64,000 nucleotides of DNA from an uncultured Thiohalocapsa sp. (GTDB lineage: Bacteria > Pseudomonadota > Gammaproteobacteria > Chromatiales > Chromatiaceae), in assembly GCA_964524185.1 (NCBI GenBank), contig CAZGCI010000010.1, forward strand, positions 520 to 64,519, in the 5' to 3' direction. How positions within the stretch are numbered: position 1 is the first letter of the stretch; each line of letters starts with the position of its first letter. Shown piece after piece: positions 14,128 through 40,131 of this stretch. The notes under the pieces are model-generated. The model did no database searches. It was given only the letters and a program-made list of their open reading frames with translations, and was not told the origin of the DNA. A program made the translations under genes and the position numbers.

Positions 14128-15420
14128 ATGGCAGGCGGCGCTGTGGGCGCAGAGGATGAGCGCATCGTCATCATCGGCGCCGGGGCATCCGGTCTTGCGC
14201 TGGGTTGGCTCTTGTCCGAGATGGGCAAGCGGGTCACGGTGCTGGAGGCGGCGCCGCGCATCGGCGGGCTGGCCCGGACCTTCCTGTGGCATGACCTGCC
14301 CTGCGACATCGCCCCGCATCGGCTGCATACGGACGACCAACCGGTGCTGCAGGCCATTCAGGGCCTGGTGCCGCTGCGGGAGTTCCGGCGCAACAGCCGC
14401 ATCCTGATGCGCGATAAGCAGATCCAGGACCCCATCAACCCCATCGAGCTGCTGCTGCGCTTTCCGCCACACATCGGGTTTAAGTTGGTGTGGGGCTTTC
14501 TGAACCGCCCGAAGCTCCCCGAGACCTCCTTCGAGGCCATGGCCCTGAACCGCTACGGCCGCGGCCTGTACGATTTCTTCTTTGAGCCGTACACCAAGAA
14601 GATGTTCGGCGTGCCGCCGGGCGAGATCTCCGCCACCTGGGGACGCGAAAAGCTCCGCGCCTCTGGGCTACTGGACGTGCTGAAACGGCAATCCAAGACC
14701 TTCTTCAACACCTTCTGGTACCCGGCCCAGGGCGGCTACGGCAGCATCTGCGATGCCATGGCGGCCCGCACCCGCGGCGAGATCCGGCTCTCGGCAGCCG
14801 TCACCGGCCTGGACCACGACGATGGGCGCATCAGCGCCGTGCAATACCGGGCCGATGGCAGCGAGCAGCGGCTCGCCTGTGACCGGGTCTTCTCCACCAT
14901 ACCGGCAACGGTGCTCGCACGCATGCTCGGTAGCGAGCTGAAGCTGCGCTTCAAGGGCGTCCAGCTGGTCTATCTGCACATCGCCAAGGCCCAGGCCCTG
15001 CCCTATCAGTGGGTCTACTGGGGAGACGGCGATGTGGTCATCAACCGGATGGCCGAATTCAAGCACTTTCATCCCGACCTGCCGCACACCGATCGCACCG
15101 TGCTGTGCGCCGAAGTCACGGTGGACACCCAGCAGCCTGTGGAGGACGTGCTCGCGGCACTGGAGCGCTATCAGCTGGTCCGCCGCGACGAGGTGCTGGA
15201 CAGCATGGTCCTCACCGAGGGCTGCGGTTATCCGGTCTATGACCGCGGCTTCGAGGCGGCCAAGGCGCAGGCGCAGGCGCTGTTCGGGCGTTTTGGCAAC
15301 CTGCACTGCGTCGGGCGCAACGCGGAGTTTCGCCACATCGAGACGGACGAGGACATCGCCTCCGCCGCCAACTGCCTGCGCGGTATCTACGGGGCCGATG
15401 CCGTCCGCCTAGGCGCATGA
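14128..15420 (+). CDS. FAD-dependent oxidoreductase, UDP-galactopyranose-mutase-like
   Basis: IVIIGAGASGLALG dinucleotide fold. FFEPYTKKMFG resembles [11 protein letters not shown] in the glf gene of this window. C-terminal GRNAEFRHIETDEDI resembles [15 protein letters not shown] of glf. Start is ATG 14128 (ORF opens at TTG 14113). Confidence 0.78.
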   Translation: MAGGAVGAEDERIVIIGAGASGLALGWLLSEMGKRVTVLEAAPRIGGLARTFLWHDLPCDIAPHRLHTDDQPVLQAIQGLVPLREFRRNSRILMRDKQIQDPINPIELLLRFPPHIGFKLVWGFLNRPKLPETSFEAMALNRYGRGLYDFFFEPYTKKMFGVPPGEISATWGREKLRASGLLDVLKRQSKTFFNTFWYPAQGGYGSICDAMAARTRGEIRLSAAVTGLDHDDGRISAVQYRADGSEQRLACDRVFSTIPATVLARMLGSELKLRFKGVQLVYLHIAKAQALPYQWVYWGDGDVVINRMAEFKHFHPDLPHTDRTVLCAEVTVDTQQPVEDVLAALERYQLVRRDEVLDSMVLTEGCGYPVYDRGFEAAKAQAQALFGRFGNLHCVGRNAEFRHIETDEDIASAANCLRGIYGADAVRLGA

Positions 15421-16442
15421 AGCAACTCGTGAGCCTCACCGTTGCGGCGGCCGTCACCGCCGCTACGCTGAGCTATGCCCTGTGGGGCACGGACCTGCCC
15501 GCCCTATGGCAGACCCTGCGCGACGGCAACCTCTGGGTGCTGCCGCCCTTCCTGGTGGTGCTGGTGGTCTTTTTCGTGAGTAACGCTCACCGCTGGGGGC
15601 TCCTGCTCCGTCCCTTCGGGCGGTTCGGCATCCGCGCGCTAATGCCGTCGATGATGATCGGCTTCGCCGCCAACAATGTGCTGCCGCTGCGCGTCGGCGA
15701 GCTGATCCGCGCCCACCTGCTGGCGCGCGATGCGGGCCTGTCCGCCCCTGTGTCCAGGAGCGGCGCCCTCATGAACCTGACGCTGGAGCGCCTGCTGGAC
15801 CTCATCGGCATCCTCGCCATCTACAGCGCGGCGCTGGCGCTGCTGCCGGCGGCGCCGGCGGGCTTTCGCGCCAGTGCCTGGCTCGCCGGCGCGGCCATCC
15901 TGGGACTCGGCGCCGTGCTGGCCGCCTTGTTGCTCTTGCCGCGGCAGGTGGATGCCCTGTGGCAGCGGCTCTCCGCCTGGCTGCCGACGACGCTGCGCAG
16001 CCGCGGCAGCATCTACCTGGTGCAGTTTGAGCAGGGGCTGGCTGCCATGCGCAGGCCCGGCACCGCGCTGCTGCTCGTCGTCTACTCCATCGCCCGTTGG
16101 TTGCTGGCCGTCGCCCTCGCCTGGCTGGCGCTCTATGCCTATGCGGGCGCGGTGCCGTTCCCGCTGGCCATGGTCACCATCGGGATCACGGCCTTCGCCG
16201 TCGCGCTGCCGAGCGCACCGGGGTTCGTGGGGCCCATCCAGGCGGCCTTTGTCTTTGCACTGACGCCCTTCGGCATAGACCGCGAGGTGGCCCTGGCCGC
16301 GAGCGTGCTCTTCCTACTCGGGCACTGGATTCCGATTACCGCCGTCGGCGCCGCCTTCCTGGCACGCCGGCACCTGTCGTTTCGTGAGCTGGCCGCCCGC
16401 GCCGAGGCCGCGGCGGACGCCCCAGCGGAGCCCGCGCCATGA
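15417..16442 (+). CDS. Polytopic membrane protein, lysyl-PG-synthase-TM/UPF0104 (MprF flippase-like) family
   Basis: ATGA overlap with the upstream gene. About 8 hydrophobic segments. Motif NNVLPLRVGELIRA is typical of flippase-like UPF0104 proteins. Confidence 0.75.
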   Translation: MKQLVSLTVAAAVTAATLSYALWGTDLPALWQTLRDGNLWVLPPFLVVLVVFFVSNAHRWGLLLRPFGRFGIRALMPSMMIGFAANNVLPLRVGELIRAHLLARDAGLSAPVSRSGALMNLTLERLLDLIGILAIYSAALALLPAAPAGFRASAWLAGAAILGLGAVLAALLLLPRQVDALWQRLSAWLPTTLRSRGSIYLVQFEQGLAAMRRPGTALLLVVYSIARWLLAVALAWLALYAYAGAVPFPLAMVTIGITAFAVALPSAPGFVGPIQAAFVFALTPFGIDREVALAASVLFLLGHWIPITAVGAAFLARRHLSFRELAARAEAAADAPAEPAP

Positions 16443-17860
16443 CCTGTATCCGCACCGCGCTGTACGCACTCAGCGCTGCCGACGGTGCCTGGCTGTTCAG
16501 CCGTGCCGTGCTCGTGCTGTTGGCGCTGCGGCTCGGCCTGTTGCTGCTCCTGTGGGCCGTCGGCGGCGAGCCGCTGCAGCCGGACTCACCGCTGTACCTA
16601 CAACTGGCCGCGGGCCTGGCGGAGCAAGGCTGGTTCTCCGCCAGCCTCACGACCTTTCAACCAGAGGTCTTTCGCACGCCGGGCTACCCCGCCTATTTGG
16701 CCTTGTTCTACCCGACGGGGCTACCGACAGGGCTCAATCACCTATTCTGGCCGCTGCTGGTGCAGGAGGGCCTGTACCTGGTCAGCGTGGGCATCTTCTA
16801 CATCGGCACGCGGACGCTGCTGGACCTCGGCCTGGCGCGGGCGGTGGTGATATTCCTGCTCATCGAGCCCGGCGGCATCGCCTACCCGAAGCTCCTGTTG
16901 AGCGACACGCTCCACCTGGCCCTGATCGTACCCGCCGTCTTCGCGCTGGGCGGGCACCTCCGGACCCAGCGCTGGTCCTGGCTCATCACCGCCGGAGTGC
17001 TGCTGGGCGCCGCCGCCTGGGTGCGCCCGGCGGCCTTTTTGCTGCCGGTGGTGTTCGCGCCGGTGCTGATTGTAGCCAGCCGTTTTCGACGCGCCGGCTT
17101 TATCCGCGCGGGGGTGCTCGTGCTGGTGACCACGTTGACGCTGAGTCCGTGGCTGGCCCGTAACCAGAGCGTCTTCGGCACGCCCTACCTCTCCGGGCAG
17201 GCCAGCAACATGTTCGCCAACTACCACCTGCCCTACGTCTGGGAGGTGACACGCGGCCTGCCCTTCCAAGACGGCCAGCGTGAGGTGGCTGCGCTCACCG
17301 AGCAGGCCGTCGCGGAGGCGGAGGCCGAGTTGGGCAGGGCACTCAATGCCGTGGAGCGGCTCAACGTCCAACAGGCCCTTGCGCTGGCCGAGCTCAAGCA
17401 GCATCCGGCGCCCTATGCCCAGCGCTGGATCATCGGCATGCTCAAGACCCTGCTCGGCCCCGGCCTGCTGGACGCCTACGCCGCCTATGGCCACCAGCCC
17501 GAGCGCATCCGCTTCGCGGCCATCGACGAGGCATCGTTCACGCGCAAGGTCACACAATTCCTGGCCGGCCAAGACCTACTGGTGCTCACCGAGGTGCTGC
17601 TGCGCGGGCTCCTCCTCGGCCTCGCACTCATCGGCGCCCTCGTCATCCTGCGCTCCGGCAACCCGTTCCTGTGGATCATCCTGCTCTTCACCGCCTACAC
17701 CATCGCCATCCCCGGCCCCATGGGCCTCACCCGGCTACGCTTCGCGGCGGAGGGGTTTCTGTTTTTGCAGGCGTGGCTGGGGTTGCGGTGCCTCTGGCGG
17801 GCCCTTGCGGCCGTCCATTCCTGGGGCAGCCAGCTGCGCCAAGCAGGCGCGTTGCACTAA
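16439..17860 (+). CDS. Polytopic membrane protein, GT-C (ArnT/PMT, GT39/83)-like putative glycosyltransferase
   Basis: ATGA overlap with the upstream gene. Many TM segments. N-terminal loop QPDSPLYLQLA ... FRTPGYPAYL resembles GT-C first-loop architecture. Confidence 0.6.
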   Translation: MTCIRTALYALSAADGAWLFSRAVLVLLALRLGLLLLLWAVGGEPLQPDSPLYLQLAAGLAEQGWFSASLTTFQPEVFRTPGYPAYLALFYPTGLPTGLNHLFWPLLVQEGLYLVSVGIFYIGTRTLLDLGLARAVVIFLLIEPGGIAYPKLLLSDTLHLALIVPAVFALGGHLRTQRWSWLITAGVLLGAAAWVRPAAFLLPVVFAPVLIVASRFRRAGFIRAGVLVLVTTLTLSPWLARNQSVFGTPYLSGQASNMFANYHLPYVWEVTRGLPFQDGQREVAALTEQAVAEAEAELGRALNAVERLNVQQALALAELKQHPAPYAQRWIIGMLKTLLGPGLLDAYAAYGHQPERIRFAAIDEASFTRKVTQFLAGQDLLVLTEVLLRGLLLGLALIGALVILRSGNPFLWIILLFTAYTIAIPGPMGLTRLRFAAEGFLFLQAWLGLRCLWRALAAVHSWGSQLRQAGALH

Positions 17861-21037: not shown

Positions 21038-22186
21038 ATGTCTGCACCACCGACCCTAGCCATCTTTCTGCCTTCCCTGGCCGGTGGCGGGGCCGAGCGC
21101 ATGATGATCAACCTGGCCTCAGGCGCGCTCGCCGCAGGCGTGGCGGTAGACCTTCTCTGCGCCGATGCGACCGGCCCTTACTTGCACCAGATTCCGCCCG
21201 GCTGCCGGCTGGTGGACTTCAAGGCGGCCAGGGTGCTGTGGGCTCTGCCGAAACTGGCGCTATGGCTGCGCCGGCACCGGCCGACTGTGCTGCTCGCGGC
21301 AATGGATCACGCCAATCTCGTGGCGATCTGGGCGCGCCAGCTGGCTCGGCCGCAACCGCCCTTGCGGCTCGCCGTGAGCGTCCGCAGCCAGCTTTCGATT
21401 GCAGCGGCCAATGAAACCAGCCTGAGAGGCCGGACGCTGCCTTGGCTGGCACGGCACTTCTACCCGCAGGCGGACATGGTCATCGCCGTTTCCGAGGGCG
21501 TGGCTGACGATCTGGCTGACTGCCTAGGGCTGCGCCGCGAACTCATGGCCGTGGTTCCGAATCCGGTTGTCAGCGACGACATCCAGGCCCTAGCCGCGGA
21601 GCCATTGGAGCACCCCTGGTTCGCGGCCGACGCACCGCCGGTTCTGCTTGCAGCCGGACGGCTAACCGCACAGAAGGATTTTCCCACGCTGCTGCGGGCC
21701 TTCGCTTGCCTAATGCCGCAGCGTGATCTGCGGCTGATCATCCTTGGCGAGGGGCCCGATCGCGCGTTACTGCAGGCCGAAATCCAGGCACTCGGCCTCA
21801 GTCATCGGGTTGCGATGCCCGGTTTTGATCCGAACCCCTTCCGCTACCTGGCGCGTGCCCGCGTCTTCGTCCTGTCGTCAGCGTGGGAGGGCCTGCCCGG
21901 GGTCCTGATCCAGGCCATGGCCTGCGGTACGCCGGTTGTCAGCACGGACTGTCCCTCTGGACCACGCGAGATCCTCGAGGATGGTCGCCTCGGGCCGTTG
22001 GTGCCAGTCGGTGATGCACCGGCATTGGCGGCTGCGATCGCCCGGACTCTGGATGACGCGCCAACGACAGCGGTGCTGAAGGCACGTGCGGCGCAGTACA
22101 GCCTGGCCCCGGTCACTCGTCGCTATCTCTCTGCGCTCGGCCTCGTCGAGGATGAGCACACGCCCGCATCCAGCACGATCCCATGA
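21038..22186 (+). CDS. Glycosyltransferase family 4 (GT-B)
   Basis: LAIFLPSLAGGGAERMMINLA N-terminus and SSAWEGLPGVLIQAMACGTPVVSTDCPSGPRE motif. Confidence 0.85.
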   Translation: MSAPPTLAIFLPSLAGGGAERMMINLASGALAAGVAVDLLCADATGPYLHQIPPGCRLVDFKAARVLWALPKLALWLRRHRPTVLLAAMDHANLVAIWARQLARPQPPLRLAVSVRSQLSIAAANETSLRGRTLPWLARHFYPQADMVIAVSEGVADDLADCLGLRRELMAVVPNPVVSDDIQALAAEPLEHPWFAADAPPVLLAAGRLTAQKDFPTLLRAFACLMPQRDLRLIILGEGPDRALLQAEIQALGLSHRVAMPGFDPNPFRYLARARVFVLSSAWEGLPGVLIQAMACGTPVVSTDCPSGPREILEDGRLGPLVPVGDAPALAAAIARTLDDAPTTAVLKARAAQYSLAPVTRRYLSALGLVEDEHTPASSTIP

Positions 22187-22350
22187 GAACGCCGATGACC
22201 TTGGCTTGGCGTGAAAGATCCGGGACCTCCGCACGCTCGGCACAGGAGTCCATGCTTGCTTCGTCACGGCGCCCGATAGCCCAGGCTTCGAAAGAATCAT
22301 GCGCAAATCTCCCTCGACCAACTTCCAGGCGACCATCGGGGCGACGCCTA

Positions 22351-23037
22351 ATGGATGAGAACCTTTTCTTTCGTCTGGCCCGTAGCGAGGGTTTCGACCT
22401 GCCAAAGACAATCAGAATCCTTGACTTCGGCTGCGGCAAAGGCGCTTTCGTTAACCAATGCTTAGCCGCGGGATACGATGCTTGGGGATGCGATCTAACC
22501 ATCGACAACGACCAGGCGCGGCTGAAGACGATCCGAGAACCCTACGCGCTGCCTTTCGCGGATGATACCTTCGACTTCATCGTCAGCCACCAGGTCTTCG
22601 AGCACGTCCAACATCCCGAGGTTGCCTGTCGAGAGCTCGCCCGGATTCTGCGCCCGGGTGGGCTTTCCATCCACGTATTCCCATCGCGTTACCGCCTCAT
22701 CGAACCTCACGTTTACGTGCCGCTGGCCTCGTTTTATCAGCCGTCTTGGTGGTTATGGCTCTGGGCGAAGCTCGGCGTGAGAAACGAGTATCAGGCCGGT
22801 CTTTCGTCGCGGGATGTGTATGAGCGCAATCGCGCTTTCCTGTGCGACGAGACGAACTATCTGCATCGAAGAGACATACGCCGCACGTTCGCCTGCTCTT
22901 TTGCTGAAGTCCGCTTCATCGAACGCCGTTTGATGGAGACCTCGGCGCGCATTCCCGAGTGCTGCAAGACGCTGATGGGCTCCCCGTTAGCCAGAATCTA
23001 CAGGGCGTTCTATCAGCGGATCGTTCTGGCCAAGTGA
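22351..23037 (+). CDS. Class I SAM-dependent methyltransferase
   Basis: ATG 22351. ILDFGCGKGAF (motif I) and FDFIVSHQVFEHV ... LRPGG. Confidence 0.8.
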   Translation: MDENLFFRLARSEGFDLPKTIRILDFGCGKGAFVNQCLAAGYDAWGCDLTIDNDQARLKTIREPYALPFADDTFDFIVSHQVFEHVQHPEVACRELARILRPGGLSIHVFPSRYRLIEPHVYVPLASFYQPSWWLWLWAKLGVRNEYQAGLSSRDVYERNRAFLCDETNYLHRRDIRRTFACSFAEVRFIERRLMETSARIPECCKTLMGSPLARIYRAFYQRIVLAK

Positions 23038-24066: not shown

Positions 24067-24086
24067 GTGCTGTACCGAGCAAAGCG

Positions 24087-30574: not shown

Positions 30575-31836
30575 TAGACGAACGGGCAATTGTCGTCTCA
30601 GATCTCTCCAAGCGTTTCGATCTGTATCGTCAGCCCGCAGACATGCTTTGGGAAGTGTTGCTTCGTCAGCAGCGCCATCAGGAATATTGCGCATTGTTAG
30701 ATATAAGCTTCGACGTGGGACACGGCGAAGTTGTTGGCATCATCGGCCGGAATGGCGCAGGCAAGAGTACCTTACTCAAAATCTTGACGGGAACACTGGA
30801 GCCAACCGCAGGTCGTGTTGCGATCGAGGGCAAGGTTTCCGCGATTTTGGAACTTGGCACGGGCTTTCATCCAGAGTATTCCGGGCGCGACAATATTCTC
30901 ATGGGTGGCCTTTGCCTTGGCATGACTAAGGACGAAATGAGAAGAAAGTTAGATTGGGTAGTCGGCTTCAGCGAGCTCGGATCCGTGATCGACCGGCCGT
31001 TCAAGACCTACTCCACTGGTATGCAGGCGCGGCTCGCTTTCAGCACCGCCGTTAGTGTCGAACCGGACATCTTGATCGTCGACGAAGCCTTGTCGGTTGG
31101 CGATGCGAAGTTTCAGCGGAAGTGCTATCAGCACATGGAGGATCTTCGTCTCCAAGGGCGTACGATCTTGTTCGTTTCGCACGATCCTCGGCCGATCACG
31201 GGATTTTGTGATCGTGCTCTATTACTCGACCAGGGGCGGCTCATCGCTGACGGCGATCCCCGGGCTGTCATGAACCGTTATAACAAGATGCTTTTCGACG
31301 AAGAAGCGGTCGTGCGAGGCCCGGTGTCGGAGCCCAGCCGGGTCGAGCGGAAAGGTAGCCTCGGCCTTGGCGGTACTTTCACACCGTCAAGTAGCGAGGT
31401 GCGCGCAGGGGATAGGAGCGCCGAGATCTTTGACGTCGCATTGGTCGACAGCAGGGGGCAACGTGCGGTGACTCTCGCGACGGGAGAACCTTGCCGAGTC
31501 GTCTACTGGGTCAGGGTGCAGGAGGCTATCGACAGCATTGGCTTCGGATTCCGCTTTACCACAGTGCAGGGCACTGACGTCTACGGCACGAGTACCAGCT
31601 TGCAGCAAATTCCCATTCCCACAACAGTTCCTGGACACGTTTATCAAGTCAGCTTTGATTTGAGAATGTGGCTTGCGCCTGGACGTTATTTCCTCACCGT
31701 GGGGGCTGCACGCAACTCCCTGGAAATGTACGACCGACGCGCCGACGTCCTGGACTTCGAGGTCACCGGAGACTTCAACGGGTACACCTCTTCGCTAGTG
31801 AATCTTAACGCGTCTGCCGCAGTTGAATTGCAGTGA
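30571..31836 (+). CDS. wzt: Polysaccharide export ABC ATPase with a C-terminal carbohydrate-binding (Wzt_C-like) domain
   Basis: GTG start overlapping the wzm stop. Walker A GRNGAGKST, signature YSTGMQARL, Walker B ILIVDEAL. An extra ~160-aa beta-rich C-terminus. Confidence 0.88.
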   Translation: MIDERAIVVSDLSKRFDLYRQPADMLWEVLLRQQRHQEYCALLDISFDVGHGEVVGIIGRNGAGKSTLLKILTGTLEPTAGRVAIEGKVSAILELGTGFHPEYSGRDNILMGGLCLGMTKDEMRRKLDWVVGFSELGSVIDRPFKTYSTGMQARLAFSTAVSVEPDILIVDEALSVGDAKFQRKCYQHMEDLRLQGRTILFVSHDPRPITGFCDRALLLDQGRLIADGDPRAVMNRYNKMLFDEEAVVRGPVSEPSRVERKGSLGLGGTFTPSSSEVRAGDRSAEIFDVALVDSRGQRAVTLATGEPCRVVYWVRVQEAIDSIGFGFRFTTVQGTDVYGTSTSLQQIPIPTTVPGHVYQVSFDLRMWLAPGRYFLTVGAARNSLEMYDRRADVLDFEVTGDFNGYTSSLVNLNASAAVELQ

Positions 31837-31873
31837 TAGACGTCGTCTCCAGACACCTCCACGTTAAAGACAG

Positions 31874-32944
31874 ATGAGTTCTGCACCCCTACAGTCGCCG
31901 ATCATGGTCATTGGCGCCGGACGATCGGGCTCGACTCTGATCTCCCGCATGCTCGACGCACACAGCGCCATTGACTTTAAAGGTGAGACTAGCTTTTTGT
32001 TGCTACGTCTCTGGGTGGAGGTGTGGCACGATCGATTCTGGCTTAATTGGCCTCGCCATGTCGCTGCACGACCGCACTCTGCAGCCGCGCCTGTGCCACA
32101 CATGCCTCCCAACGAGCTAGCGACGGAACGAGCCCGTGTCGGTAAGCTCGTCGCAGAAATGATAGTCCGTTTGTTGCGCGTGCAACGTGAGGACCGTCGC
32201 TTCTGGGGTTATAAAGAGCTCTGGAGCGGCTTGTCGCAATACAACCACGACTGGAGCGCGTACGATGCAGTTTTGCCCGGCGCCCATTGGCTGCATCTCG
32301 TTCGGCATCCGTTTGACTTTGCCCGCTCCTGTGCCGCTTGGAATGGCACACTGCTGACCCGCGACTATTTGGAAGCGAGGCTTTCCAACTGGGTCGACAT
32401 GGTCGAATGCAACCGCCGACGCATTGACACGGGGCGTTACCATGAAATTCGCATGGAAGATGTTGCTCGCAAACCAGAAGAAACGTTAGATCCCATACTG
32501 AGTGAGCTAGGACTTGGTTGGGAGTCCGCAATGACCACGGCTCTGGGCAAGAAGACAATGGCTTCGGATCAACACACGGATGACGAGACAGCGTCGCTAT
32601 CCTCGAATGAGATCAACATGTTGATTGACCAAATCCCGGGGTTGGCCGAAGCTATGAACTTATATTGCTACACTGCACCGCAGCGGGTGCTACTGAGCGC
32701 TCAGACTCGAGCGGAATCGTCGGTCGACCTTCGTGACCCGGAGAATGAGCAGAAGGGCGCGTTTTTACCACGTCACGTCCTGGAAGCGCAGCTGCACACC
32801 GCCCGCTCTGCCCTATCGGAGCTGACCGGGATGGCCTCCCAGGGCGGGTTTGGTCCGCACAAATCCATTAAAGTTGAGCCAGCCGAGGCATTCCAACGGG
32901 TTCGCTCGGTGTTGGCGAAACTCACCGAGGCCCTCAAGCAATGA
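31874..32944 (+). CDS. Sulfotransferase family protein
   Basis: N-terminal PAPS 5'-phosphosulfate-binding loop IMVIGAGRSGSTLISRML. A later RHPFDFARS region. Confidence 0.72.
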   Translation: MSSAPLQSPIMVIGAGRSGSTLISRMLDAHSAIDFKGETSFLLLRLWVEVWHDRFWLNWPRHVAARPHSAAAPVPHMPPNELATERARVGKLVAEMIVRLLRVQREDRRFWGYKELWSGLSQYNHDWSAYDAVLPGAHWLHLVRHPFDFARSCAAWNGTLLTRDYLEARLSNWVDMVECNRRRIDTGRYHEIRMEDVARKPEETLDPILSELGLGWESAMTTALGKKTMASDQHTDDETASLSSNEINMLIDQIPGLAEAMNLYCYTAPQRVLLSAQTRAESSVDLRDPENEQKGAFLPRHVLEAQLHTARSALSELTGMASQGGFGPHKSIKVEPAEAFQRVRSVLAKLTEALKQ

Positions 32945-32990
32945 TGCTTCGGCGGCTATTGATTCCCGAACGCAGCAAACCGACAACCCC

Positions 32991-34838
32991 ATGTGCGGAA
33001 TAGCAGGCATCGTCTGCCAGTCACGGATTTTCGATTCTGACCAGCTCAAGCGCATCGTCACCGATATGCGCGACCAGATGGTGCATCGGGGGCCGGATGA
33101 CGCCGGCGTCTGGGTAGACCCGGACGGCGGCTGTGCGCTCGCACACCGCCGACTGTCGATCATCGACCTATCGGCCGAGGGGCGCCAGCCGATGGGCAAT
33201 GAGGACGGTTCAGTCCAGGTCACCTTCAACGGCGAAATCTATAACTTTCAGGCCCTGCGCGACGAGTTGATCCGCAAGGGGCATCGGCTGCATTCGCAGA
33301 CCGACTCTGAGGTACTACCGCATCTGTTCGAGGCAATGGACCCGGCGCGCCTTCATGACCTCGACGGCATGTTCGGTCTTGGAATCTGGCACCGGGAGCG
33401 CCGCCGCCTGCTGCTTGCGCGCGATCCGTTCGGTAAGAAACCGCTCTACTTCGCAAAAGGACGGGGCTGGTTCGCGTTTGCGTCCGAGCTGCAGGCACTT
33501 ACGCGCGTCCCGGGGTTCGACCCGGCGATCGACCGCGACGCGCTGTCTCTGTACCTGCTGCTCCAATATGTGCCGGCGCCGTTCAGCATCTATAGCGCCG
33601 CCAGGAAGCTAACGCCGGGGTCCTATCTGGAGCTCGATCTCGCCGACGGGCAAGCCGTTGAGGGGACTCCGAGACGTTGGTTTCAGTTCGAAGCCGTCGA
33701 GCCGCCGTCGCTGGGCGGACCATCGCTCGACGAGCGCATCGAGGAACTGCGACCGCTTATCCTGTCGGCAGTCCGGAAGCGTCTGATCAGTGACGTGCCG
33801 CTCGGGGCTTTCCTGTCCGGCGGAGTCGACTCTGGACTCGTCGCGGCAATGGTGACGCAAGAGCTCGGCGAACCGCTGAAGACCTTTTCCATCGGCTTCG
33901 CTGGGACCAATGAGAGTGAGCACCAGTATGCGCGTGAGGTCGCCCACCACCTCGGCACGGAGCATCATGAGGACCTGCTGCAGCCGGACGCACTGCAGCT
34001 CGTGCATGAGATCGCCGGTCGGCTCGATGAGCCAAATGGAGATTCGAGTTGTCTGCCCACCTACCTACTCTGCCGCTACACCCGCGAACATGTGACCGTA
34101 GCGCTGTCCGGGGACGGCGGCGACGAGCTGTTCGGCGGCTACGGGCGTTACCGAGACACGCTCAACGAGTACGGCAGCCGGCTCGACCGGCTCAAGCGCA
34201 TGTTCCGCAGCCGGCGCCCTTACCAACCTGCGGACGGTTATCTGTCACCGCGCTGGCTAATGTTCCAGCCCGAGCAGGTGGATACTCTGGTCGGCGGTTT
34301 GTCGCCGACGGTGCGAAACATCCTCCATGACTGGCGCGAGCGCCTCAATGACCAGCGCAAGCCCCTGTTGCACCGGATGCGGAATTTGGACGCCGAAACT
34401 TATATGCCCGGCGCCGTGCTGGCCAAAGTCGACCGAATGAGCATGCAAGTGGCGCTTGAGGTGCGGTGTCCGTTGCTCGATCGGCACGTGGCCGCCTATG
34501 CGCAGGGCCTCCCCGCCTCCGCCTGCTGGCGACCGCCGGCCGAAACCAAACGACTGCTGAAGGCATTGACCGCTCGCTACCTGCCGCGCAACTGGATCGA
34601 CCGCCCCAAGATGGGTTTTGGGCTCCCGTCCAACGCCTGGTCCAAGGACGCAATGCTCACGCTGGCTCGCGAATTGCTAACCGGTACGGATAGCCGACTC
34701 GGTCAGCTGCTTGTACCAGGAAGCCTGAGCGCCGTGATCGAGAAGCAGGCGCAGCCCGGCTGCTTCTCGATCTACCAGCTTTGGCCGCTTCTCATCATGG
34801 AGCTTTGGCTGCGTAAGATCGCAGATCACCACCTATGA
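32991..34838 (+). CDS. asnB: Asparagine synthase (glutamine-hydrolysing) family amidotransferase, second copy
   Basis: ATG 32991 gives MCGIAGI. SGGVDSG PP-loop. The longer ORF start at 32850 overlaps the sulfotransferase gene and is rejected. Confidence 0.9.
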   Translation: MCGIAGIVCQSRIFDSDQLKRIVTDMRDQMVHRGPDDAGVWVDPDGGCALAHRRLSIIDLSAEGRQPMGNEDGSVQVTFNGEIYNFQALRDELIRKGHRLHSQTDSEVLPHLFEAMDPARLHDLDGMFGLGIWHRERRRLLLARDPFGKKPLYFAKGRGWFAFASELQALTRVPGFDPAIDRDALSLYLLLQYVPAPFSIYSAARKLTPGSYLELDLADGQAVEGTPRRWFQFEAVEPPSLGGPSLDERIEELRPLILSAVRKRLISDVPLGAFLSGGVDSGLVAAMVTQELGEPLKTFSIGFAGTNESEHQYAREVAHHLGTEHHEDLLQPDALQLVHEIAGRLDEPNGDSSCLPTYLLCRYTREHVTVALSGDGGDELFGGYGRYRDTLNEYGSRLDRLKRMFRSRRPYQPADGYLSPRWLMFQPEQVDTLVGGLSPTVRNILHDWRERLNDQRKPLLHRMRNLDAETYMPGAVLAKVDRMSMQVALEVRCPLLDRHVAAYAQGLPASACWRPPAETKRLLKALTARYLPRNWIDRPKMGFGLPSNAWSKDAMLTLARELLTGTDSRLGQLLVPGSLSAVIEKQAQPGCFSIYQLWPLLIMELWLRKIADHHL

Positions 34839-35021
34839 TTAGGCCGGTACGCTTGCGGATCGGCTGCTCCGAGATTCCAGAAGGCGCGCCTGCTCATCCC
34901 ATCGGTCTCTCATATTCATTGTAAGTGGGACTGCCGGCCCTGCGGAAAACAGCGCCGCAAGTCGTCCTACGGGGTCTTCTGCTCCCTCAGTGGTGTTGTG
35001 GAGCGGAATCCTCTCGCCTTA

Positions 35022-36647
35022 ATGACCCGACCCAGACTGATCATCACAGCGGCGGCCCTTGCATTAGCCGCGTTCGTCGGCCTCGCCTGGCACAGCCTCG
35101 CCTATTGGCACTGGGGCGATGAGGACGAGAAAATCGTCGCTGCCTGGATGATCGCGGAGGGTTGGCGGCTCTACGGCGATCTGTTCGCCCACCATGGTCC
35201 GCTGAACTATGCGCTGGCGCACGGGGTGTACACGCTGACCGGGTCGGTTGCGCTGGCGCCCTATCGTGCCGCCCAGTGGGGCATTCTGTTGTTGACGGCG
35301 GTCGCGCTGGGCGCGAGCCCGCTGCTACGCGGTTGGCAGCAGCGGGTGCTAACGGGGAGTCTCTTTTGCCTGCTCGTGGCGCTGCTGGCGCCCCTTTGGT
35401 ACGGGCATACGTTGCTCTATCACGCGCAGGGCGGCGCGGCGGTGTCTGTCGCGCTGAGTCTACTGCTATTGCCCTTGATGTTGGGGGTTATCCCGTCGCG
35501 CATCGCGGCGGCATTCGGTGGTGCGGGGCTTTCAGCGGCGGTCTTTGCGGCCTATCCGTTTGGCGTCGCTGCGGGCTTGTTGACCTTGTCGACCCTGATG
35601 TTGGTGCGCGCCGGTGGCCGACATTGGCGCGACGTGCTCGGCACGCTGGTGGCTGCTGCGGCGGGCTTCGCTGCCTTCACGCTGCTGATGCTGCTGTGGC
35701 TGGTGCTGTACGGCGACCTCGTGGGATACGGCGTCTACCACCTCTGGTTCAACCAGGTCGTTTACGCCGACTTCATCATCTACTCGCCCGTTGACGCGCT
35801 CAAGCAGCTAAAAAAGCTGTTCCGCAGTCCGCTCGGCTGGGTGCTGCAGGCAGCGCTGCTGTTTACCCTTCTGCTCGGCCTCGAAGTCCGCTCACTACGC
35901 CGCAAAGACCCGCCAGCAGGTAGCGGCCTGCGACGCGGCCTTTGGCTCGTGGGCGGTTGCACGACATTCCTCCTGGGCCTGTTGTTCCTCAACCCCCGCG
36001 GCGACGTGGTATTCAAGAACGCGGCCCTGTGGATCGTCGGGCTTGGGCTCTTGAGCCTGCTCATCGTGTGGCGCCCGATGGGTCCCAGCAGCCGGCGCGC
36101 CGTCGGCGTCCTGCGGTGGCTGGCGATCTTCGTGGCCGTGGCGGCCCCGCTCTACCTGGCTGGGATCAAGGGCTGGGCGGATGTCGACCAGACCTACGTC
36201 ACGCGCACCGCTGCTGTGCAGATGCGCGAGGCGCTGGACCGGCAGGTGCGCTTGGCGCAGGCCCTGACGTCACCGGACGAGCCCATTCTGGCCACGGTCT
36301 TCATGCCACGCTGGTACCTGCTGACGGAGCGTCTGCCGTCCTCCGGCGCGTACTACTATCTGCCCTGGCAGGCCGCCTACAACCGCGACCCGGTGCTCGG
36401 CTACCGCATTGACCCCTGCGTGGATCTCGCTATGGCACCGCCGAAGCTCATCGCCTGGGACCGCTGGACGGTCTGGGAACGCTACGACGTCGCCGACTAT
36501 GCGCCCTGCTTGGTGGAACTCATGCAGCGGGACTATGTCGCGGTGAGCGGCACACCCTTTCTGCTGCGGCAACCGGTGAGCGACGCGGACCGGGCCGTTG
36601 TCGCTGACTTCGGCTACCGGCTCGAGCCCGTGACAGCAGCCGATTGA
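35022..36647 (+). CDS. Large polytopic membrane protein, GT-C-like or polymerase-like (unassigned)
   Basis: About 12 hydrophobic segments followed by a soluble ~150-aa C-terminal domain. ATG 35022 (GTG 34998 is an alternative). Convergent with the flavoenzyme/flippase-like/GT2 operon. Confidence 0.6.
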   Translation: MTRPRLIITAAALALAAFVGLAWHSLAYWHWGDEDEKIVAAWMIAEGWRLYGDLFAHHGPLNYALAHGVYTLTGSVALAPYRAAQWGILLLTAVALGASPLLRGWQQRVLTGSLFCLLVALLAPLWYGHTLLYHAQGGAAVSVALSLLLLPLMLGVIPSRIAAAFGGAGLSAAVFAAYPFGVAAGLLTLSTLMLVRAGGRHWRDVLGTLVAAAAGFAAFTLLMLLWLVLYGDLVGYGVYHLWFNQVVYADFIIYSPVDALKQLKKLFRSPLGWVLQAALLFTLLLGLEVRSLRRKDPPAGSGLRRGLWLVGGCTTFLLGLLFLNPRGDVVFKNAALWIVGLGLLSLLIVWRPMGPSSRRAVGVLRWLAIFVAVAAPLYLAGIKGWADVDQTYVTRTAAVQMREALDRQVRLAQALTSPDEPILATVFMPRWYLLTERLPSSGAYYYLPWQAAYNRDPVLGYRIDPCVDLAMAPPKLIAWDRWTVWERYDVADYAPCLVELMQRDYVAVSGTPFLLRQPVSDADRAVVADFGYRLEPVTAAD

Positions 36648-36656
36648 GCCGCCCGG

Positions 36657-38027
36657 TCAGACCACCGCCGCCCCATGCCGCCCGACCGCCGCTGTCGGCG
36701 CCTGTAGCTCCGCCGCCAATGCCGCCGCCGCGGCACGCCCCTCGCGAATCGCGTAGTTGGTGCCGCGGTCTTCCGGGTAGATCTGCGCCATGGTGGCGAG
36801 CTTGAGGCCGCGGATGGGCGTGTCCCGTGGCGGGACGAGACCGGCGTAGCCGCGCTCGACGATGGGCTGCGAGTAGCGCGCCCGCCAGACATGTGCGGCT
36901 TGGACCCAGTCCGGCCGCAGATCCGGAAACATCCGCGCGAGGTGCCCGAGCGTGAAGTCCACCACCGCGGCGTCGTCCATGCGGTACAGCGCGTCGTCCT
37001 CGGGCAGGTATTTGGACAGGTAGACGATGTGCCGCCCGCCGTAGCTGTCCACGGGCTCGAAGTTGGTGTGCTCGATGACGCCCACAAACGGGAAGCCCGG
37101 GTCGTTGACATTGAGCCAATAGGTCTCGGAGAGGCTGCGGTCCAGCTCCAGCACCACGCACAGATTCGCGAGGTAGCGGATGCGGCGCAGCGCGGTCAGC
37201 GCCTCCGCACTCAGATGCGGCGCGAGCAGGTCCGCGACGAGGGGCAGCGCCGGCGTCGCGATGATGGCGTCCACGGCCACCCGCCCGGCGTCGGTGACCA
37301 GCGCGGTGGCCCGCCCCTGCGTGACCTCAATACCGCGCACCGCTGCGGCAGTCTGCACCACACCGCCCTGCACCGCAATGGCCGCCGCCAGGCGTTCGGC
37401 GAGCGCGGCAAAACCGCCGCGGAAATACGCCAGCTGCTCCGCGCCGCCCTTGCCGCGGCTGCCGCCGCGCAACTTGAGCTTGTTCCAGATCCACACGGCG
37501 GAGACTTCGTCGGCAACGGCGCCGAACTTGCCTCGCAGCAGCGGTTCCCAGACGACCCGATACACGCGCTCGCCGCCCAGCTGCAGCAGCCAGTCGGCGG
37601 CGGTGCGCTGCTCCAGCGTCTGCCAGTCGCGGACCCGTCTGGCGCGCAGCGCGAGCAGCCCGAGGCGGATGCGATCGGCCAAGGGCAGGGCGGAGAAACG
37701 CAGCAGATCCAGCGGCGTGGAAAGCTTGAAGAAGCGGTTGGCGTAGTACATACCCGTGCGGGTCGGGCGCAGTCGCACCTGGTCGGCGGCGCCAAGCGCC
37801 TCGATCAGGTCCATCACGTGCCGGTCGTTGGTGAACCAGTGGTGATAGAACTTCTCCAGCCGCTCGCCGCCCACCTGGAAGCTGCCGGCGAGCCCGCCCA
37901 CCTCCGCGGCCGCCTCGAAGACGGTGGCGCGCACACCGCGGCGGCCCAGCTCGTAGGCGGCAGCAAGCCCGCAGAAGCCGCCGCCGATGATGCCAACATG
38001 CGGTCCGTTTGCAGTGCCTGGGTTCAT
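36657..38027 (-). CDS. NAD(P)/FAD-dependent oxidoreductase (amine-oxidase/phytoene-desaturase fold)
   Basis: VGIIGGGFCGLAAAYEL ... FEAAAEVGGL dinucleotide fold. C-terminal YPEDRGTNYAIREG. Confidence 0.85.
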   Translation of the reverse strand: MNPGTANGPHVGIIGGGFCGLAAAYELGRRGVRATVFEAAAEVGGLAGSFQVGGERLEKFYHHWFTNDRHVMDLIEALGAADQVRLRPTRTGMYYANRFFKLSTPLDLLRFSALPLADRIRLGLLALRARRVRDWQTLEQRTAADWLLQLGGERVYRVVWEPLLRGKFGAVADEVSAVWIWNKLKLRGGSRGKGGAEQLAYFRGGFAALAERLAAAIAVQGGVVQTAAAVRGIEVTQGRATALVTDAGRVAVDAIIATPALPLVADLLAPHLSAEALTALRRIRYLANLCVVLELDRSLSETYWLNVNDPGFPFVGVIEHTNFEPVDSYGGRHIVYLSKYLPEDDALYRMDDAAVVDFTLGHLARMFPDLRPDWVQAAHVWRARYSQPIVERGYAGLVPPRDTPIRGLKLATMAQIYPEDRGTNYAIREGRAAAAALAAELQAPTAAVGRHGAAVV

Positions 38028-38101: not shown

Positions 38102-39157
38102 TCAGGGGCTGACCCGTTGTGCCGATCGCTCGGCGGCGTGTGCCGCGGCGGCGCCGGCCAGCAGCCCGCGCCCGCGCAGCAGCAGATAGCCCAGGCCGAG
38201 CACCGTCATGGGCAGCCACAGCACCGCGTGCACGGTAAAGGCGACGGCCGCTGCCATGGTCTCTGGCACGCCGTAGGCGGCAAAGGCGGTGAGGGTGAAG
38301 TAATCGAAGGTGCCGATGTAGCCGGGCGAGCTCGGGATCAGCGTCGACAGCGTGCCAGTGGCCATGGCAAACAGGGCGCCGAGCGGACCGATGGACACCG
38401 CGAAGGCGAGCGCGACGACACCGAAGACCGCCGCTTCCAGCAGCCAGATGGCCAGCGACAGACCCAGCAGCACAAGCACGTCCACCGGGCGGCGCAGCAC
38501 CGCGAAGGTCTCGACGAAACTCTGCCCCCAACGCCCGAGGCGCTCCGACCAACCGCGCGCCGCAACGGCTGGCTGCTGCGCGACCCGGTGCACCAGCGCC
38601 GGCAGCCGCGGCGCCAGCAACAGCAGCGCCGCCGAGGTCAGCGCCGTGGTGCCGGCCAGCCCTGCCGCAGACAGGGTGATGGCGCGTGGAAACAGGTCCG
38701 TTGGCACCGCCAGCAGGCCCACAAAGAAGAGTCCAAGCAGCGTCGTCATGTCCAACAGGCGCTCCAGCACCAGGGTGCCGAGGACGCGCATGGCCGGCGA
38801 GCGCAACTGGCGCCGAAAGCCAAAGGCGCGCAGCGCATCGCCGGCGCGCAGCGGCAGGACGTTGTTGACGGCAATGCTCGTCAGGTACGGCCACACGCAG
38901 GCCGCCGCCGGCAGCCCCGGCGCCAACGCCCGCAATAGCCACCACCAGCGCAGGATGCGCAGGGCATAGTCGGCGGCGAGCAGGCTCAGCGCCGCGAGGA
39001 GCCAAGGCAACGCCAAGCCGGTGAAGGCGGCGGCGAGCGCAGCGGCGTCCACCCGCGCGGCGATGAGCCACAAGAAGCCTGCGGTTACGATCAGCCCGAG
39101 CACGGGCTTGAGCCAGCGGCCCTGGGCGGCAATGCCCCCTGCGCGCGGCGCGGTCAT
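38102..39157 (-). CDS. Polytopic membrane protein, lysyl-PG-synthase-TM/UPF0104 (flippase-like) family
   Basis: ATG 39155-39157 forms an ATGA overlap with the stop of the upstream GT2 gene. NNVLPLRAGDALRA motif matches that of 15417..16442. The longer ORF reaching 39781 is an out-of-frame artefact. Confidence 0.78.
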   Translation of the reverse strand: MTAPRAGGIAAQGRWLKPVLGLIVTAGFLWLIAARVDAAALAAAFTGLALPWLLAALSLLAADYALRILRWWWLLRALAPGLPAAACVWPYLTSIAVNNVLPLRAGDALRAFGFRRQLRSPAMRVLGTLVLERLLDMTTLLGLFFVGLLAVPTDLFPRAITLSAAGLAGTTALTSAALLLLAPRLPALVHRVAQQPAVAARGWSERLGRWGQSFVETFAVLRRPVDVLVLLGLSLAIWLLEAAVFGVVALAFAVSIGPLGALFAMATGTLSTLIPSSPGYIGTFDYFTLTAFAAYGVPETMAAAVAFTVHAVLWLPMTVLGLGYLLLRGRGLLAGAAAAHAAERSAQRVSP

Positions 39158-40131
39158 GGTGCTGCGTCCTCCGGCGGTGCGTCGAAGCCGAGCCGCTCCT
39201 TGATCAAATACAGCGGCCGGCGCTTCACCTCCCAGTAAACCCGCCCGAGGTACTCGCCGATGACGCCGAGGAAGAGCAACTGCACGCCGCCGAGGAACAG
39301 CACGGCGATGAAGAGCAGCGTCCAGCCCGGCACCCACACCTCCGTGAACAGCCGCAGTGCCAGCGCATAGCCGATGCCGAGCAGCGCCAGCCCCGACGCC
39401 AGCAGGCCCAGGTACACCGCGAGCCGCAGGGGCACCAGTGAGAAGGACAACAGCCCATCCGCCGCAAAACGCAGCATGCGCCGCAGCGGGTACTTGCTCT
39501 TGCCGGCGGCGCGCGCGGCGCGCTGATAGCGCAGCGGCTCCTGGCGGAAGCCCGTCCAGGCCACCATGCCGCGCAGGAAGCGATCGCGCTCCGGCATGGC
39601 CAGCACCGCGTCCACAACGCGCCGGTCCATGAGTCGAAAGTCGCCGGTATCGACGGGGATGGGCGTGTTGGAGAGCCGGTTGAGCAAACGATAGAACAGG
39701 CTCGCCGACCAACGCTTGAAGCGCGTCTCCCCCGCGCGGGCCTCGCGCTCGCCGTAGACCACGTCCACGCCCTCGCGCCAACGTGCGAGCATCTGCGGGA
39801 TCAGCTCCGGCGGGTCCTGCAGGTCGGCATCGATGAGCACCACGGCAGCCCCGGACGCCGCCGCCAGACCCGCGCTCACAGCGATCTGGTGGCCAAAGTT
39901 ACGCGACAGCGACAGCACGCGCACACGCCCGTCCGCGGCCTGAATCTCGCGCAGCTCGTCCAACGTGCCGTCAGCGCTGCCGTCGTCCACATACAGGATC
40001 TCCCAGTCCAGATCCGACACCGAGTCGAGCGCCCCGCACAGGCGCGCATGGCTCGCCGCGATCACGGCCTGCTCGTTGCAGCAGGGGACGATGACGCTGA
40101 GGCTGGCGTTGTGCTGGCGGTGGTTGGGCAC
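39154..40131 (-). CDS. GT2 polyprenyl-phosphate glycosyltransferase (GtrB/ArnC-like)
   Basis: LSVIVPCCNE, YVDDGSADGT, LIDADLQDPPE (DXD). Two C-terminal TM helices typical of GtrB/ArnC. Confidence 0.85.
   Translation of the reverse strand: MPNHRQHNASLSVIVPCCNEQAVIAASHARLCGALDSVSDLDWEILYVDDGSADGTLDELREIQAADGRVRVLSLSRNFGHQIAVSAGLAAASGAAVVLIDADLQDPPELIPQMLARWREGVDVVYGEREARAGETRFKRWSASLFYRLLNRLSNTPIPVDTGDFRLMDRRVVDAVLAMPERDRFLRGMVAWTGFRQEPLRYQRAARAAGKSKYPLRRMLRFAADGLLSFSLVPLRLAVYLGLLASGLALLGIGYALALRLFTEVWVPGWTLLFIAVLFLGGVQLLFLGVIGEYLGRVYWEVKRRPLYLIKERLGFDAPPEDAAP

Follow-up and report, generated by a model that had tools for sequence, protein, structure and literature searches.

The flavoenzyme family of a gene module in an uncultured Thiohalocapsa sp. 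(Chromatiaceae) occurs in nature fused to UPF0104 membrane proteins and to PMT-type GT-C proteins. These natural fusions are newly described here. The module is one of two in the window, i.e., the 64,000-nt stretch of DNA that was analyzed (GCA_964524185.1, contig CAZGCI010000010.1). Both modules probably serve extracytoplasmic glycosylation with a sugar carried on polyprenyl phosphate, and module 2 is the complete form. More tentatively, its PRK07233-type flavoenzyme may be a membrane-tethered editor of polyprenyl-phosphate-linked glycosyl donors, with a fold unrelated to that of DprE1. It would alter the sugar, yielding a keto or epimeric form, or else the isoprenoid tail, and pass its product straight to UPF0104 and the GT-C protein.

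Module 2 is encoded mainly on the minus strand, by a GtrB/ArnC-type polyprenyl-phosphate glycosyltransferase (GT2, 39154..40131, assigned by similarity to a solved GtrB), a UPF0104/MprF-flippase-type membrane protein (UPF2, 38102..39157, from Pfam and NCBIfam) whose gene overlaps that of GT2 by 4 bases, and a phytoene-desaturase/PPOX-like flavoenzyme of the PRK07233 type (FAD2, 36657..38027, from NF005560 and a predicted model). Convergent on FAD2, on the plus strand, lies POLY2 (34998..36647), an orphan polytopic protein of 549 aa with a predicted GT-C fold; it has a GTG start, and an alternative ATG at 35022 gives a 541-aa form. Module 1 lies on the plus strand and comprises FAD1 (14113..15420; TTG start, in-frame ATG at 14128 possible), a UGM-like flavoenzyme of the amine-oxidase superfamily, UPF1 (15417..16442), of the same type as UPF2 by Pfam and NCBIfam, and POLY1 (16439..17860), a 473-aa polytopic protein assigned through its homologue families as ArnT/PMT_2-family GT-C-like. 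FAD1/UPF1 and UPF1/POLY1 overlap by 4 bases each. ORF calls and Pfam agreed with the first-pass annotation on the positions and families of all seven genes. The genome has three PF03706 genes, two of which abut an Amino_oxidase gene; Amino_oxidase itself gave 11 matches in the genome, corresponding to about 10 frames. The pairing is not due to chance, for which rough arithmetic over ~4000 genes gives a probability of ~1e-4. The third UPF0104 gene adjoins a lipid A acyltransferase gene.

Upstream of module 2, within the same minus-strand gene run, are two SDR genes (40462..41451 and 41460..42518; Epimerase and 3Beta_HSD families), with HpnA as best NCBIfam match (107-121 bits, below the cut-off) and relatives at 16 of 80 FAD2 loci. 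They are possible redox partners for the sugar or the lipid-linked sugar and may belong to the cassette. A Wzm/Wzt polysaccharide gene cluster (ABC transporter) is also adjacent to module 2.

GT2 had been called GtrB-like, and it indeed matches the solved GtrB sll0501 (5ekp) over its full length (308 bits, E 6.5e-91, residues 9-320 of 325), with 150 bits to ArnC among solved chains and 126.7 bits to Pfam Glycos_transf_2. Its translation contains two hydrophobic C-terminal stretches, near residues 225-260 and 270-300, and a crude hydropathy count gave two such stretches (three in locus L011) in 9 of 10 orthologues. Orthology to PgfS or ArnC was rejected, as both equivalog cut-offs were missed (287.8 bits vs. 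500 and 151.1 vs. 529, respectively); GT2 is a family member only.

Across 80 loci from many phyla, the FAD2-type cassette keeps the order GtrB-type GT2, (UPF0104), flavoenzyme, variable polytopic protein. Upstream of the flavoenzyme and on its strand, 63 loci have a GT2 gene (49 of the 59 whose upstream sequence spans 4.5 kb or more), and this placement is directional, since a GT2 anywhere in the locus is found at just 66 of the 80. UPF0104 is an optional member of the cassette (37/80). It is missing from 42 of the 80 loci, and a small GtrA ORF is close by at only 2 of these; the cassette can therefore do without a dedicated flippase. Neither GT2 nor UPF0104 occurs at 11 loci, including 6 short ones (<9 kb). 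Fifty polytopic ORFs were found no more than 300 bases from the FAD gene. PMT_2 is matched at E<0.01 by 12 of them (by 6 over the cut-off), DUF7024 by 8, and DUF2298 and DUF2079 by one each. A further 25 have no family match, and the remaining three are a permease and two UPF0104 proteins. Altogether, the polytopic partners form 34 sequence clusters among 92 candidates, a variability like that of the acceptor-specific Gtr* enzymes. The cassette has a scattered distribution (at E<=1e-60, 10 of 401 genomes sampled from the phylum) and looks mobile.

Both polytopic proteins had been proposed to be GT-C-like, and this view is sustained by the homologues of POLY1 and the model of POLY2. POLY1 itself scores below the cut-off of PMT_2 (17 bits, E 0.007; cut-off 26.1), but PF13231 is found in 19 of its 41 homologues, several of which are named ArnT-like by their sources, which on sequence grounds would place POLY1 in a PMT_2/ArnT-like family. 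Its profile (alignment A4) found no GT-C by sequence among solved chains. In GT-C enzymes, the first extracytoplasmic loop carries a conserved acidic residue. The 20 sequences of A4 share an invariant D49 and Y53 just behind the first hydrophobic helix, along with a conserved S50, and D49 may be catalytic. For POLY2, no Pfam or NCBIfam family was found, and the profile (A1) from its homologues (15 found) hit no solved chain at E<=1. Its AlphaFold model (pLDDT 82.6, pTM 0.86) has STT3 and ArnT as top Foldseek matches and aligns to ArnT 5ezm (VIA) over 428 of 549 residues (rmsd 4.7 A) with a Z of 16.1, moderately above the values near 13-14 that are common for helical bundles; GT-C enzymes or GT-C-like subunits make up 50 of the 50 VIA matches listed. 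Directly after helix 11-33, the stretch G40-D41-E42-D43-E44-K45 is invariant in 11 sequences, and its acidic cluster is a candidate GT-C loop feature.

UPF1 and UPF2 are members of LPG_synthase_TM (PF03706; 142.9 and 156.0 bits, cut-off 33.4) and of the TIGR00374 flippase-like domain (52.7 and 61.7 bits, cut-off 43.2). N98, N99, P102, R104, G106, D107, and R110 of UPF2 are invariant across 38 orthologues (alignment A3). Searching PDB sequences with the A3 profile returned no solved MprF and no chain at E<=0.01, and the match to NCBIfam bifunc_MprF was 20.4 bits only. By homology to the MprF flippase domain, UPF0104 would flip the lipid-linked donor. A genome search found no GtrA gene in either module; the single GtrA domain of the genome is located on contig C17, joined to a different GT2.

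The known or proposed cargoes of UPF0104 proteins are phospholipid derivatives (Lys-PG, GlcN-PG), and UPF0104 and the flavoenzyme might accordingly have a phospholipid or a glycolipid as their substrate, like MprF or GpgF, with module 1 working together with the acyl-activating genes upstream of it (9096..13993) and without a polyprenyl-phosphate sugar. The neighbor of the third UPF0104 gene would fit this, as would the ACP-FAAL-acyltransferase gene that ends 120 bases upstream of FAD1. However, acyl-activation genes are present at 0 of 24 FAD1 loci (8 of them with 3 kb or more of sequence upstream), and the partners that are kept, a GtrB-type GT2 and a GT-C protein, are users of polyprenyl-phosphate sugars, which makes this explanation very improbable.

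FAD2 belongs to Amino_oxidase in Pfam (140.3 bits) and meets the equivalog score of NCBIfam NF005560 (PRK07233, 'hypothetical protein'; 522.4 bits vs. a cut-off of 252), as runner-up to which HpnE reaches 111 bits. Its Yersinia orthologue scores 514.7 bits on NF005560. A literature search found no paper on this type of flavoenzyme. The predicted model (pLDDT 90.7) aligns best to rice phytoene desaturase 5mog (VIA; Z 35.7, rmsd 3.1 A, 432 aligned), followed by PPOX (Z 30-32) and UGM (Z 29.8, bacterial UGM ranking 22nd). The modeled fold is nearest to that of membrane-associated phytoene desaturase and PPOX, and it separates the desaturase, oxidase and mutase classes only a little (Z 35.7, 32, 29.8). 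The nine long relatives comprise seven UPF0104-FAD and two FAD-PMT/PMT_2 fusions, none with a soluble sugar enzyme. The FAD2-type domain is found at the C-terminus of UPF0104 or N-terminal to the PMT-type GT-C; at locus L007, a fusion of this kind lies within a single open frame. Together with the lack of a signal peptide in FAD2, these fusions show that the family is placed at the cytoplasmic face of the membrane, and they support the suggestion that the flavoenzyme belongs with the membrane machinery. Its substrate is probably lipid-linked.

What FAD2 would alter on such a substrate can be read in two ways. In analogy to phytoene desaturase, CrtI and HpnE, it might desaturate or saturate the isoprenoid tail, thereby giving the pathway a distinct carrier. 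The lead of phytoene desaturase over the next family (Z 35.7 vs. 32.3) and the second place of HpnE agree with this, as does the fact that the sugar supply varies: Yersinia has a CDP-6-deoxyhexose route, distant relatives have PRPP/UbiA-type clusters, and most loci have none. Since the supplies differ in this way, polyprenyl phosphate would be the constant part of the substrate. Nevertheless, the patchy distribution stands against a modified tail, as it is hard to rationalize how a mobile decoration cassette would alter a shared, essential carrier pool, and no such modified bacterial carrier was found in a literature search; this possibility is considered unlikely. The favored reaction, itself tentative and based on analogy, is one in which FAD2 would oxidize a hydroxyl group of the sugar in Und-P-sugar, following the logic of DprE1. 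FAD2 relatives at 30-33% identity are located in UbiA/DprE1-like/SDR/GtrA operons of two plasmids, on which the neighboring DprE1-like gene matches FAD_binding_4 (64.5 bits). DprE1 is of the FAD_binding_4 type. A DprE1-type oxidase by fold was rejected for FAD1 and FAD2, which are both of the Amino_oxidase type, the FAD2 model being phytoene desaturase/PPOX-like. The analogy to DprE1 is therefore functional only and concerns the proposed role.

FAD1 belongs to a different subtype. It matches Amino_oxidase (77.1 bits) as well as GLF (36.6 bits, cut-off 26.3; profile positions 2-161 of 203) and, below the cut-off, the PRK07208 type of NCBIfam (173 bits). Among solved chains, UGM 4dsg is closest to it in sequence (E 5.9e-11), and FAD1 is 25% identical to the UGM of the window itself, with the UGM motifs aligned. 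A UDP-galactopyranose mutase equivalog was rejected (TIGR00031, 66 bits vs. a cut-off of 303.75). FAD1 orthologues adjoin UPF0104 in 10 of 24 metagenome loci and PMT_2 proteins in loci L125 and L133. The fused relatives nearest to FAD1 join soluble partners, namely GT2 (5 of 10 long forms), RmlD and NeuB (3/5), and this subtype hence points to nucleotide-sugar chemistry.

Both flavoenzymes could then be ordinary cytoplasmic nucleotide-sugar enzymes, either oxidoreductases or pyranose-furanose mutases, supplying an unusual NDP-sugar to GT2, with the membrane proteins forming a plain three-component system. Fcf2 of E. coli O52 is such a mutase, like UGM. Besides the likeness of FAD1 to UGM and its soluble fusion partners, the cassette of Yersinia and Pseudomonas points in this direction, as it combines glucose-1-phosphate cytidylyltransferase (418 bits), CDP-glucose 4,6-dehydratase (418 bits) and an SDR in the layout of a nucleotide-sugar pathway with the flavoenzyme last. 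For FAD2, on the other hand, all nine long relatives are joined to UPF0104 or GT-C, phytoene desaturase tops the structural matches, and most loci are without nucleotide-sugar genes despite the constant flavoenzyme. A role in nucleotide-sugar supply is judged improbable, about as much so as a modified tail.

The two modules had been described as paralogous, which is overstated: their sequences indicate that they are not close paralogues. Pairwise alignment does support the similarity of UPF1 and UPF2 (30% identity over 232 aa, E 2e-11), in which the common motif NNVLPLR(V/A)G(E/D) is aligned as had been noticed. In contrast, FAD1 and FAD2 are only 25% identical (404 aa, E 5e-14) and differ in subtype (UGM-like vs. 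phytoene-desaturase/PPOX-like), and comparison of POLY1 with POLY2 revealed no similarity (best E 1.3; hhalign probability 0.1). Moreover, module 1 contains no polyprenyl-phosphate GT2 according to Pfam.

In the preferred mechanism, i.e., glycosylation with editing of the lipid-linked donor, GT2 would, in view of its family membership, transfer a sugar from a nucleotide sugar to undecaprenyl phosphate at the cytoplasmic face. At this same face, FAD2 would act on the lipid-linked donor before export, and the nearby SDRs may reduce the oxidized product. UPF0104 would flip the donor in place of GtrA, as its homology to MprF suggests, after which POLY2, with its GT-C fold, would attach the sugar to a periplasmic acceptor, most plausibly the polysaccharide of the adjacent Wzm/Wzt cluster. 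The translationally coupled module 1 (FAD1-UPF0104-GT-C) would be a reduced analogue with a UGM-like flavoenzyme; lacking a GT2, it would have to draw its lipid-linked donor from another source.

Phage receptors, serotypes and vaccine targets are affected by three-component periplasmic glycosylation, which acts on them by shaping O-antigens, teichoic acids and surface glycoproteins. If the proposal is true, bacterial periplasmic glycosylation has a generic, so far unrecognized fourth component in many phyla, whose conservation would imply that editing of lipid-linked donors extends beyond the mycobacterial DprE1/DprE2 paradigm. Inhibitors and assays already exist for this flavoenzyme class (phytoene desaturase, PPOX), and the cassette gives stand-alone UPF0104 proteins a concrete candidate cargo.

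The closest systems described before, GtrA/GtrB/Gtr* O-antigen glucosylation and those of the CsbB/GtcA/YfhO type, share with module 2 a GtrB-type GT2, a variable GT-C and a step of translocation across the membrane; the ABC-transporter polysaccharide cluster beside module 2 is a further likeness. They differ in using a small GtrA flippase where UPF0104, often absent, is found here, and in lacking the flavoenzyme that is the constant fourth member of the cassette. A standard system of synthase, small GtrA and GT-C was rejected, as neither module has GtrA and module 1 is without GT2. PF03706 and the conserved motif region are common to UPF1, UPF2, the MprF flippase domain, PplT (YbhN) and GpgF, and a flippase role is proposed for stand-alone members; the known or proposed cargo is a modified phospholipid, whereas here it is most likely a polyprenyl-phosphate sugar. 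UDP-galactopyranose mutase has the GLF domain and aligned motifs in common with FAD1, but the operon partners of FAD1 are membrane proteins. In archaea, the AglD-like neighborhood contains the same trio of GT2, UPF0104 and a PMT/STT3-like protein, with UPF0104 likewise predicted as flippase for a lipid-linked sugar (Makarova et al., 2015, PMC5898192); the passages on this neighborhood do not mention a flavoenzyme, and the cassette described here is bacterial. The mycobacterial DprE1/DprE2, which epimerize decaprenyl-phospho-ribose, and the pentofuranose three-component systems of Citrobacter (Kelly et al., 2024, PMC11127046) offer the precedent of a lipid-linked sugar that is edited by redox enzymes before GT-C use, as proposed here. 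The operons of the distant FAD2 relatives add to this likeness, but the donor of the DprE1 route derives from PRPP, while that of module 2 would be made by GT2 from a nucleotide sugar.

Module 2 of the window consists of a GtrB/ArnC-type glycosyltransferase gene, GT2 (39154..40131), the UPF0104 gene UPF2 (38102..39157) and the PRK07233-type flavoenzyme gene FAD2 (36657..38027), all on the minus strand, where they close a long gene run, with two SDR genes upstream of GT2. The gene of the orphan polytopic protein POLY2 (549 aa; 34998..36647) is convergent with this run. Module 1 lies on the plus strand and comprises the UGM-like flavoenzyme FAD1 (14113..15420), UPF1 (15417..16442) and the ArnT/PMT_2-like polytopic protein POLY1 (473 aa; 16439..17860), all three genes being translationally coupled. 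In neither module did scans for promoters and terminators score higher than shuffled controls. The gene families assigned in the first-pass annotation were confirmed with Pfam and NCBIfam, and the motif it ascribed to both UPF0104 proteins of the window is indeed common to them in a pairwise alignment (30% identity, E 2e-11). FAD1 and FAD2 are 25% identical (E 5e-14). POLY1 and POLY2 have no similarity, either pairwise or profile-to-profile. The earlier interpretation of two paralogous glycosylation modules is partly supported; what the analysis shows is to which families the genes belong, how the cassette is ordered, that POLY2 is predicted to fold like GT-C enzymes and that flavoenzyme fusions exist.

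In total, the genome contains three PF03706 (UPF0104) genes and about 10 Amino_oxidase frames. With so few such genes, finding two abutting pairs within a single window is not a matter of chance (about 1e-4 by a rough estimate). The third UPF0104 gene (contig C13, 26110-29955, locus L003) is coupled to the gene of an acyltransferase of lipid A biosynthesis (Lip_A_acyltrans, 205 bits), a context unlike that of either module. The genome's only GtrA domain shares a 440-aa open frame with a GtrB-like GT2 match (contig C17, 5779-6861), apparently a GT2-GtrA fusion, and a classical ArnC-like/PMT_2 pair is present on contig C2 (74403-76063).

The organization of module 2 recurs across phyla. With one genome per species, 575 relatives of FAD2 were found, and the 80 best loci among them (47-87% identity) span Proteobacteria, Cyanobacteria, Gemmatimonadota, Bacteroidia, Acidobacteriota, Planctomycetes, Bdellovibrionota and others. 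Within the window's phylum the cassette is patchy: of 401 genomes sampled, 10 have it at E<=1e-60, and the genome of the window is one of these 10. Of the best 80 loci, 63 have a GtrB/ArnC-like GT2 gene upstream of the flavoenzyme gene and on its strand; among the 59 whose upstream sequence reaches 4.5 kb or more, 49 do. Counting any position in the locus raises the number only to 66 of the 80. UPF0104 stands between the two genes in 37 of the 80 (32 of the 59), both GT2 and UPF0104 were found in 32 of the best 80, and neither in 11, six of which are short (<9 kb). A search for small polytopic ORFs in the 42 loci without UPF0104 yielded six, two of them GtrA.

Polytopic partners, defined as ORFs that encode 400 aa or more, have five or more predicted helices and lie at most 300 bases from the flavoenzyme gene, numbered 50, most of them immediately downstream on the same strand. 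Twelve match PMT_2 at E<0.01 (six over the cut-off), eight carry a C-terminal DUF7024, and the other families are UPF0104 (two), DUF2298, DUF2079 and a permease (one each); 25 of the 50 have no Pfam family. The 92 candidate sequences fall into 34 clusters. Given this variety and the conserved gene order, GT2 and the flavoenzyme form a constant donor-side pair, whereas the GT-C-like partner is variable.

For GT2, the alignment with the solved polyisoprenyl-phosphate glycosyltransferase GtrB (sll0501) runs end to end (308 bits; 150 bits for ArnC). Profiles of POLY1, POLY2 and UPF2 matched no solved structure by sequence. POLY1 scores below the threshold for PMT_2; PF13231 is found in 19 of its 41 homologues, several of which are labelled ArnT-like in their source names, and an Asp after the first helix is invariant in the alignment of the family. 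For POLY2, only 15 homologues could be detected and neither Pfam nor NCBIfam assigns a family; its profile reaches just one FAD-adjacent polytopic protein beyond its orthologue (locus L039, 15.6 bits). Its predicted model is good (pLDDT 82.6). Foldseek places STT3 and ArnT as top matches, the comparison with ArnT (VIA) gives Z 16.1 and an rmsd of 4.7 Å over 428 residues, and 50 of 50 among the matches listed (VIA) are of the GT-C type. In GT-C enzymes, catalytic acidic residues are kept just after helix 1. POLY2 has the invariant stretch G40-D41-E42-D43-E44-K45 immediately past its helix 1. The GT-C signature expected of the polytopic proteins is thus present by fold and motif, although for POLY2 a profile search alone does not find it.

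FAD2 and its relatives supply the evidence on where the flavoenzyme works. For the predicted model of FAD2 (pLDDT 90.7), rice phytoene desaturase is the best structural match (Z 35.7, rmsd 3.1 Å, 432 aligned), ahead of PPOX (Z 30-32), amine oxidases (Z about 30) and UGM (29.8 and 26.8), and Foldseek agrees. A fold of this kind points to an enzyme that associates with membranes and takes a hydrophobic substrate, although it leaves the chemistry unfixed; the protein atlas offers generic oxidoreductase names only. A search for long proteins returned nine FAD2 relatives (49-65% identity). Seven are fusions of an N-terminal UPF0104 domain to a C-terminal flavoenzyme, of which four were checked domain by domain; one of the seven is encoded at locus L007 in one uninterrupted open frame. 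The other two join an N-terminal flavoenzyme to a PMT_2 or PMT membrane domain (P0062, PMT_2, 27.3 bits; P0063, PMT, 24.4 bits; both over the cut-off). FAD2 itself lacks a signal peptide, its sequence opening at once with the dinucleotide-binding motif, and the MprF flippase domain is described with eight membrane segments in a passage of the PplT preprint (10.1101/2022.03.11.483950). Most simply, therefore, the flavin domain is cytoplasmic and tethered to membrane partners. We infer from this placement, as the strongest evidence, that the flavoenzyme acts on a lipid-linked substrate before export.

The sugar supply bears on which part of that substrate is recognized. The Yersinia and Pseudomonas cassettes add a glucose-1-phosphate cytidylyltransferase and a CDP-glucose 4,6-dehydratase (418 bits for each, over the cut-off) as well as an SDR, implying a CDP-6-deoxyhexose donor; most FAD2 loci are without such CDP-sugar genes. 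The seven-gene cassette of Yersinia frederiksenii (locus L055, 2249-10272) has 33-42% G+C vs 47-50% in its flanks, and horizontal acquisition is suggested; complete E. coli genomes contain nothing that matches it. As the supply varies, it can be argued that what the flavoenzyme recognizes is constant among the donors and lies either close to the phosphate or in the lipid. Oxidation of the sugar and modification of the lipid tail are both compatible with this variation. More distant FAD2 relatives (30-33% identity) occur on a Burkholderia and an Agrobacterium plasmid. The plasmid operons (NZ_CP156687.1, NZ_CP074394.1) encode, in sequence, a methyltransferase, a UbiA prenyltransferase, an FAD_binding_4 oxidoreductase, two SDRs, the FAD2 relative and GtrA, and constitute a lipid-linked pentofuranose pathway of the kind treated in passages of Kelly et al., 2024 (PMC11127046). 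They are followed by convergent hypothetical proteins of about 530 aa without a Pfam family.

FAD1 differs from FAD2. By sequence, UGMs are the solved proteins nearest to it, and it aligns across the UGM motifs with the window's own canonical UDP-galactopyranose mutase (62273-63679; GLF, 263.8 bits), so that the island contains three flavoenzymes of the superfamily. Of 24 metagenome loci with FAD1 orthologues, 10 have UPF0104 downstream and two keep POLY1; PMT_2 proteins adjoin FAD1 orthologues at two loci (L125, 41 bits; L133, 57 bits). Among its closest fused relatives, five of 10 long forms carry soluble GT2 domains, and an RmlD or a radical SAM domain also occurs as partner. Of two further FAD1-type proteins, P0167 extends at its C-terminus into a family-less domain (about 730 aa, at least 10 helices), and P0214 ends in four helices that match GtrA weakly (E 0.13). 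Relatives of FAD1 at about 30% identity (L085, L088, L092) are fused to NeuB and SAF domains in three of five long frames tested, a combination that makes up nonulosonic acid synthase. The segment just before module 1 (9096-13993) is occupied by a gene resembling those of fatty-acyl-CoA ligases and by one for an ACP-FAAL-PlsC acyltransferase fusion of 978 aa. They were rejected as members of the module: none of the 24 FAD1 metagenome loci has them, so they are probably a separate unit.

The window is a large polysaccharide island of about 66% G+C, with its nearest relatives in Thiohalocapsa/Chromatiaceae (FAD2 of L083 is 87% identical). The region 22000-34838 has a lower G+C (54-60% vs about 68%). 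It contains Wzm/Wzt (with Wzt_C), a sulfotransferase, two asparagine-synthase-like genes, methyltransferases, GT4 genes and an ORF without Pfam or NCBIfam family (325 aa; 23089-24066), and is an ABC-transporter-type polysaccharide cluster, possibly acquired horizontally. It is the likely source of the acceptor for module 2.

In the mechanism proposed here, an undecaprenyl-phosphate-linked sugar would be the substrate of the cassette, the flavoenzyme would act on this donor, UPF0104 would flip it and the neighbouring Wzm/Wzt polysaccharide would serve as acceptor. The flavoenzyme is not mentioned in the passages of PMC5898192, the PplT preprint and PMC12713373 that concern such systems, and searches of openly accessible article texts found no paper on its role. 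The same passages offer the closest parallels: a trio of UPF0104, GT2 and a PMT/STT3-like protein was predicted for archaea in 2015 (PMC5898192), and both the PplT preprint (10.1101/2022.03.11.483950) and the GpgF paper (PMC12713373) propose a flippase role for UPF0104 proteins that stand alone. The observation of both modules is confirmed, and they most likely represent a variant of three-component periplasmic glycosylation with an added flavoenzyme. The GT-C-like partner varies in the manner of the acceptor-specific Gtr* enzymes, and it is the flavoenzyme that makes the cassette of interest beyond a plain three-component system.
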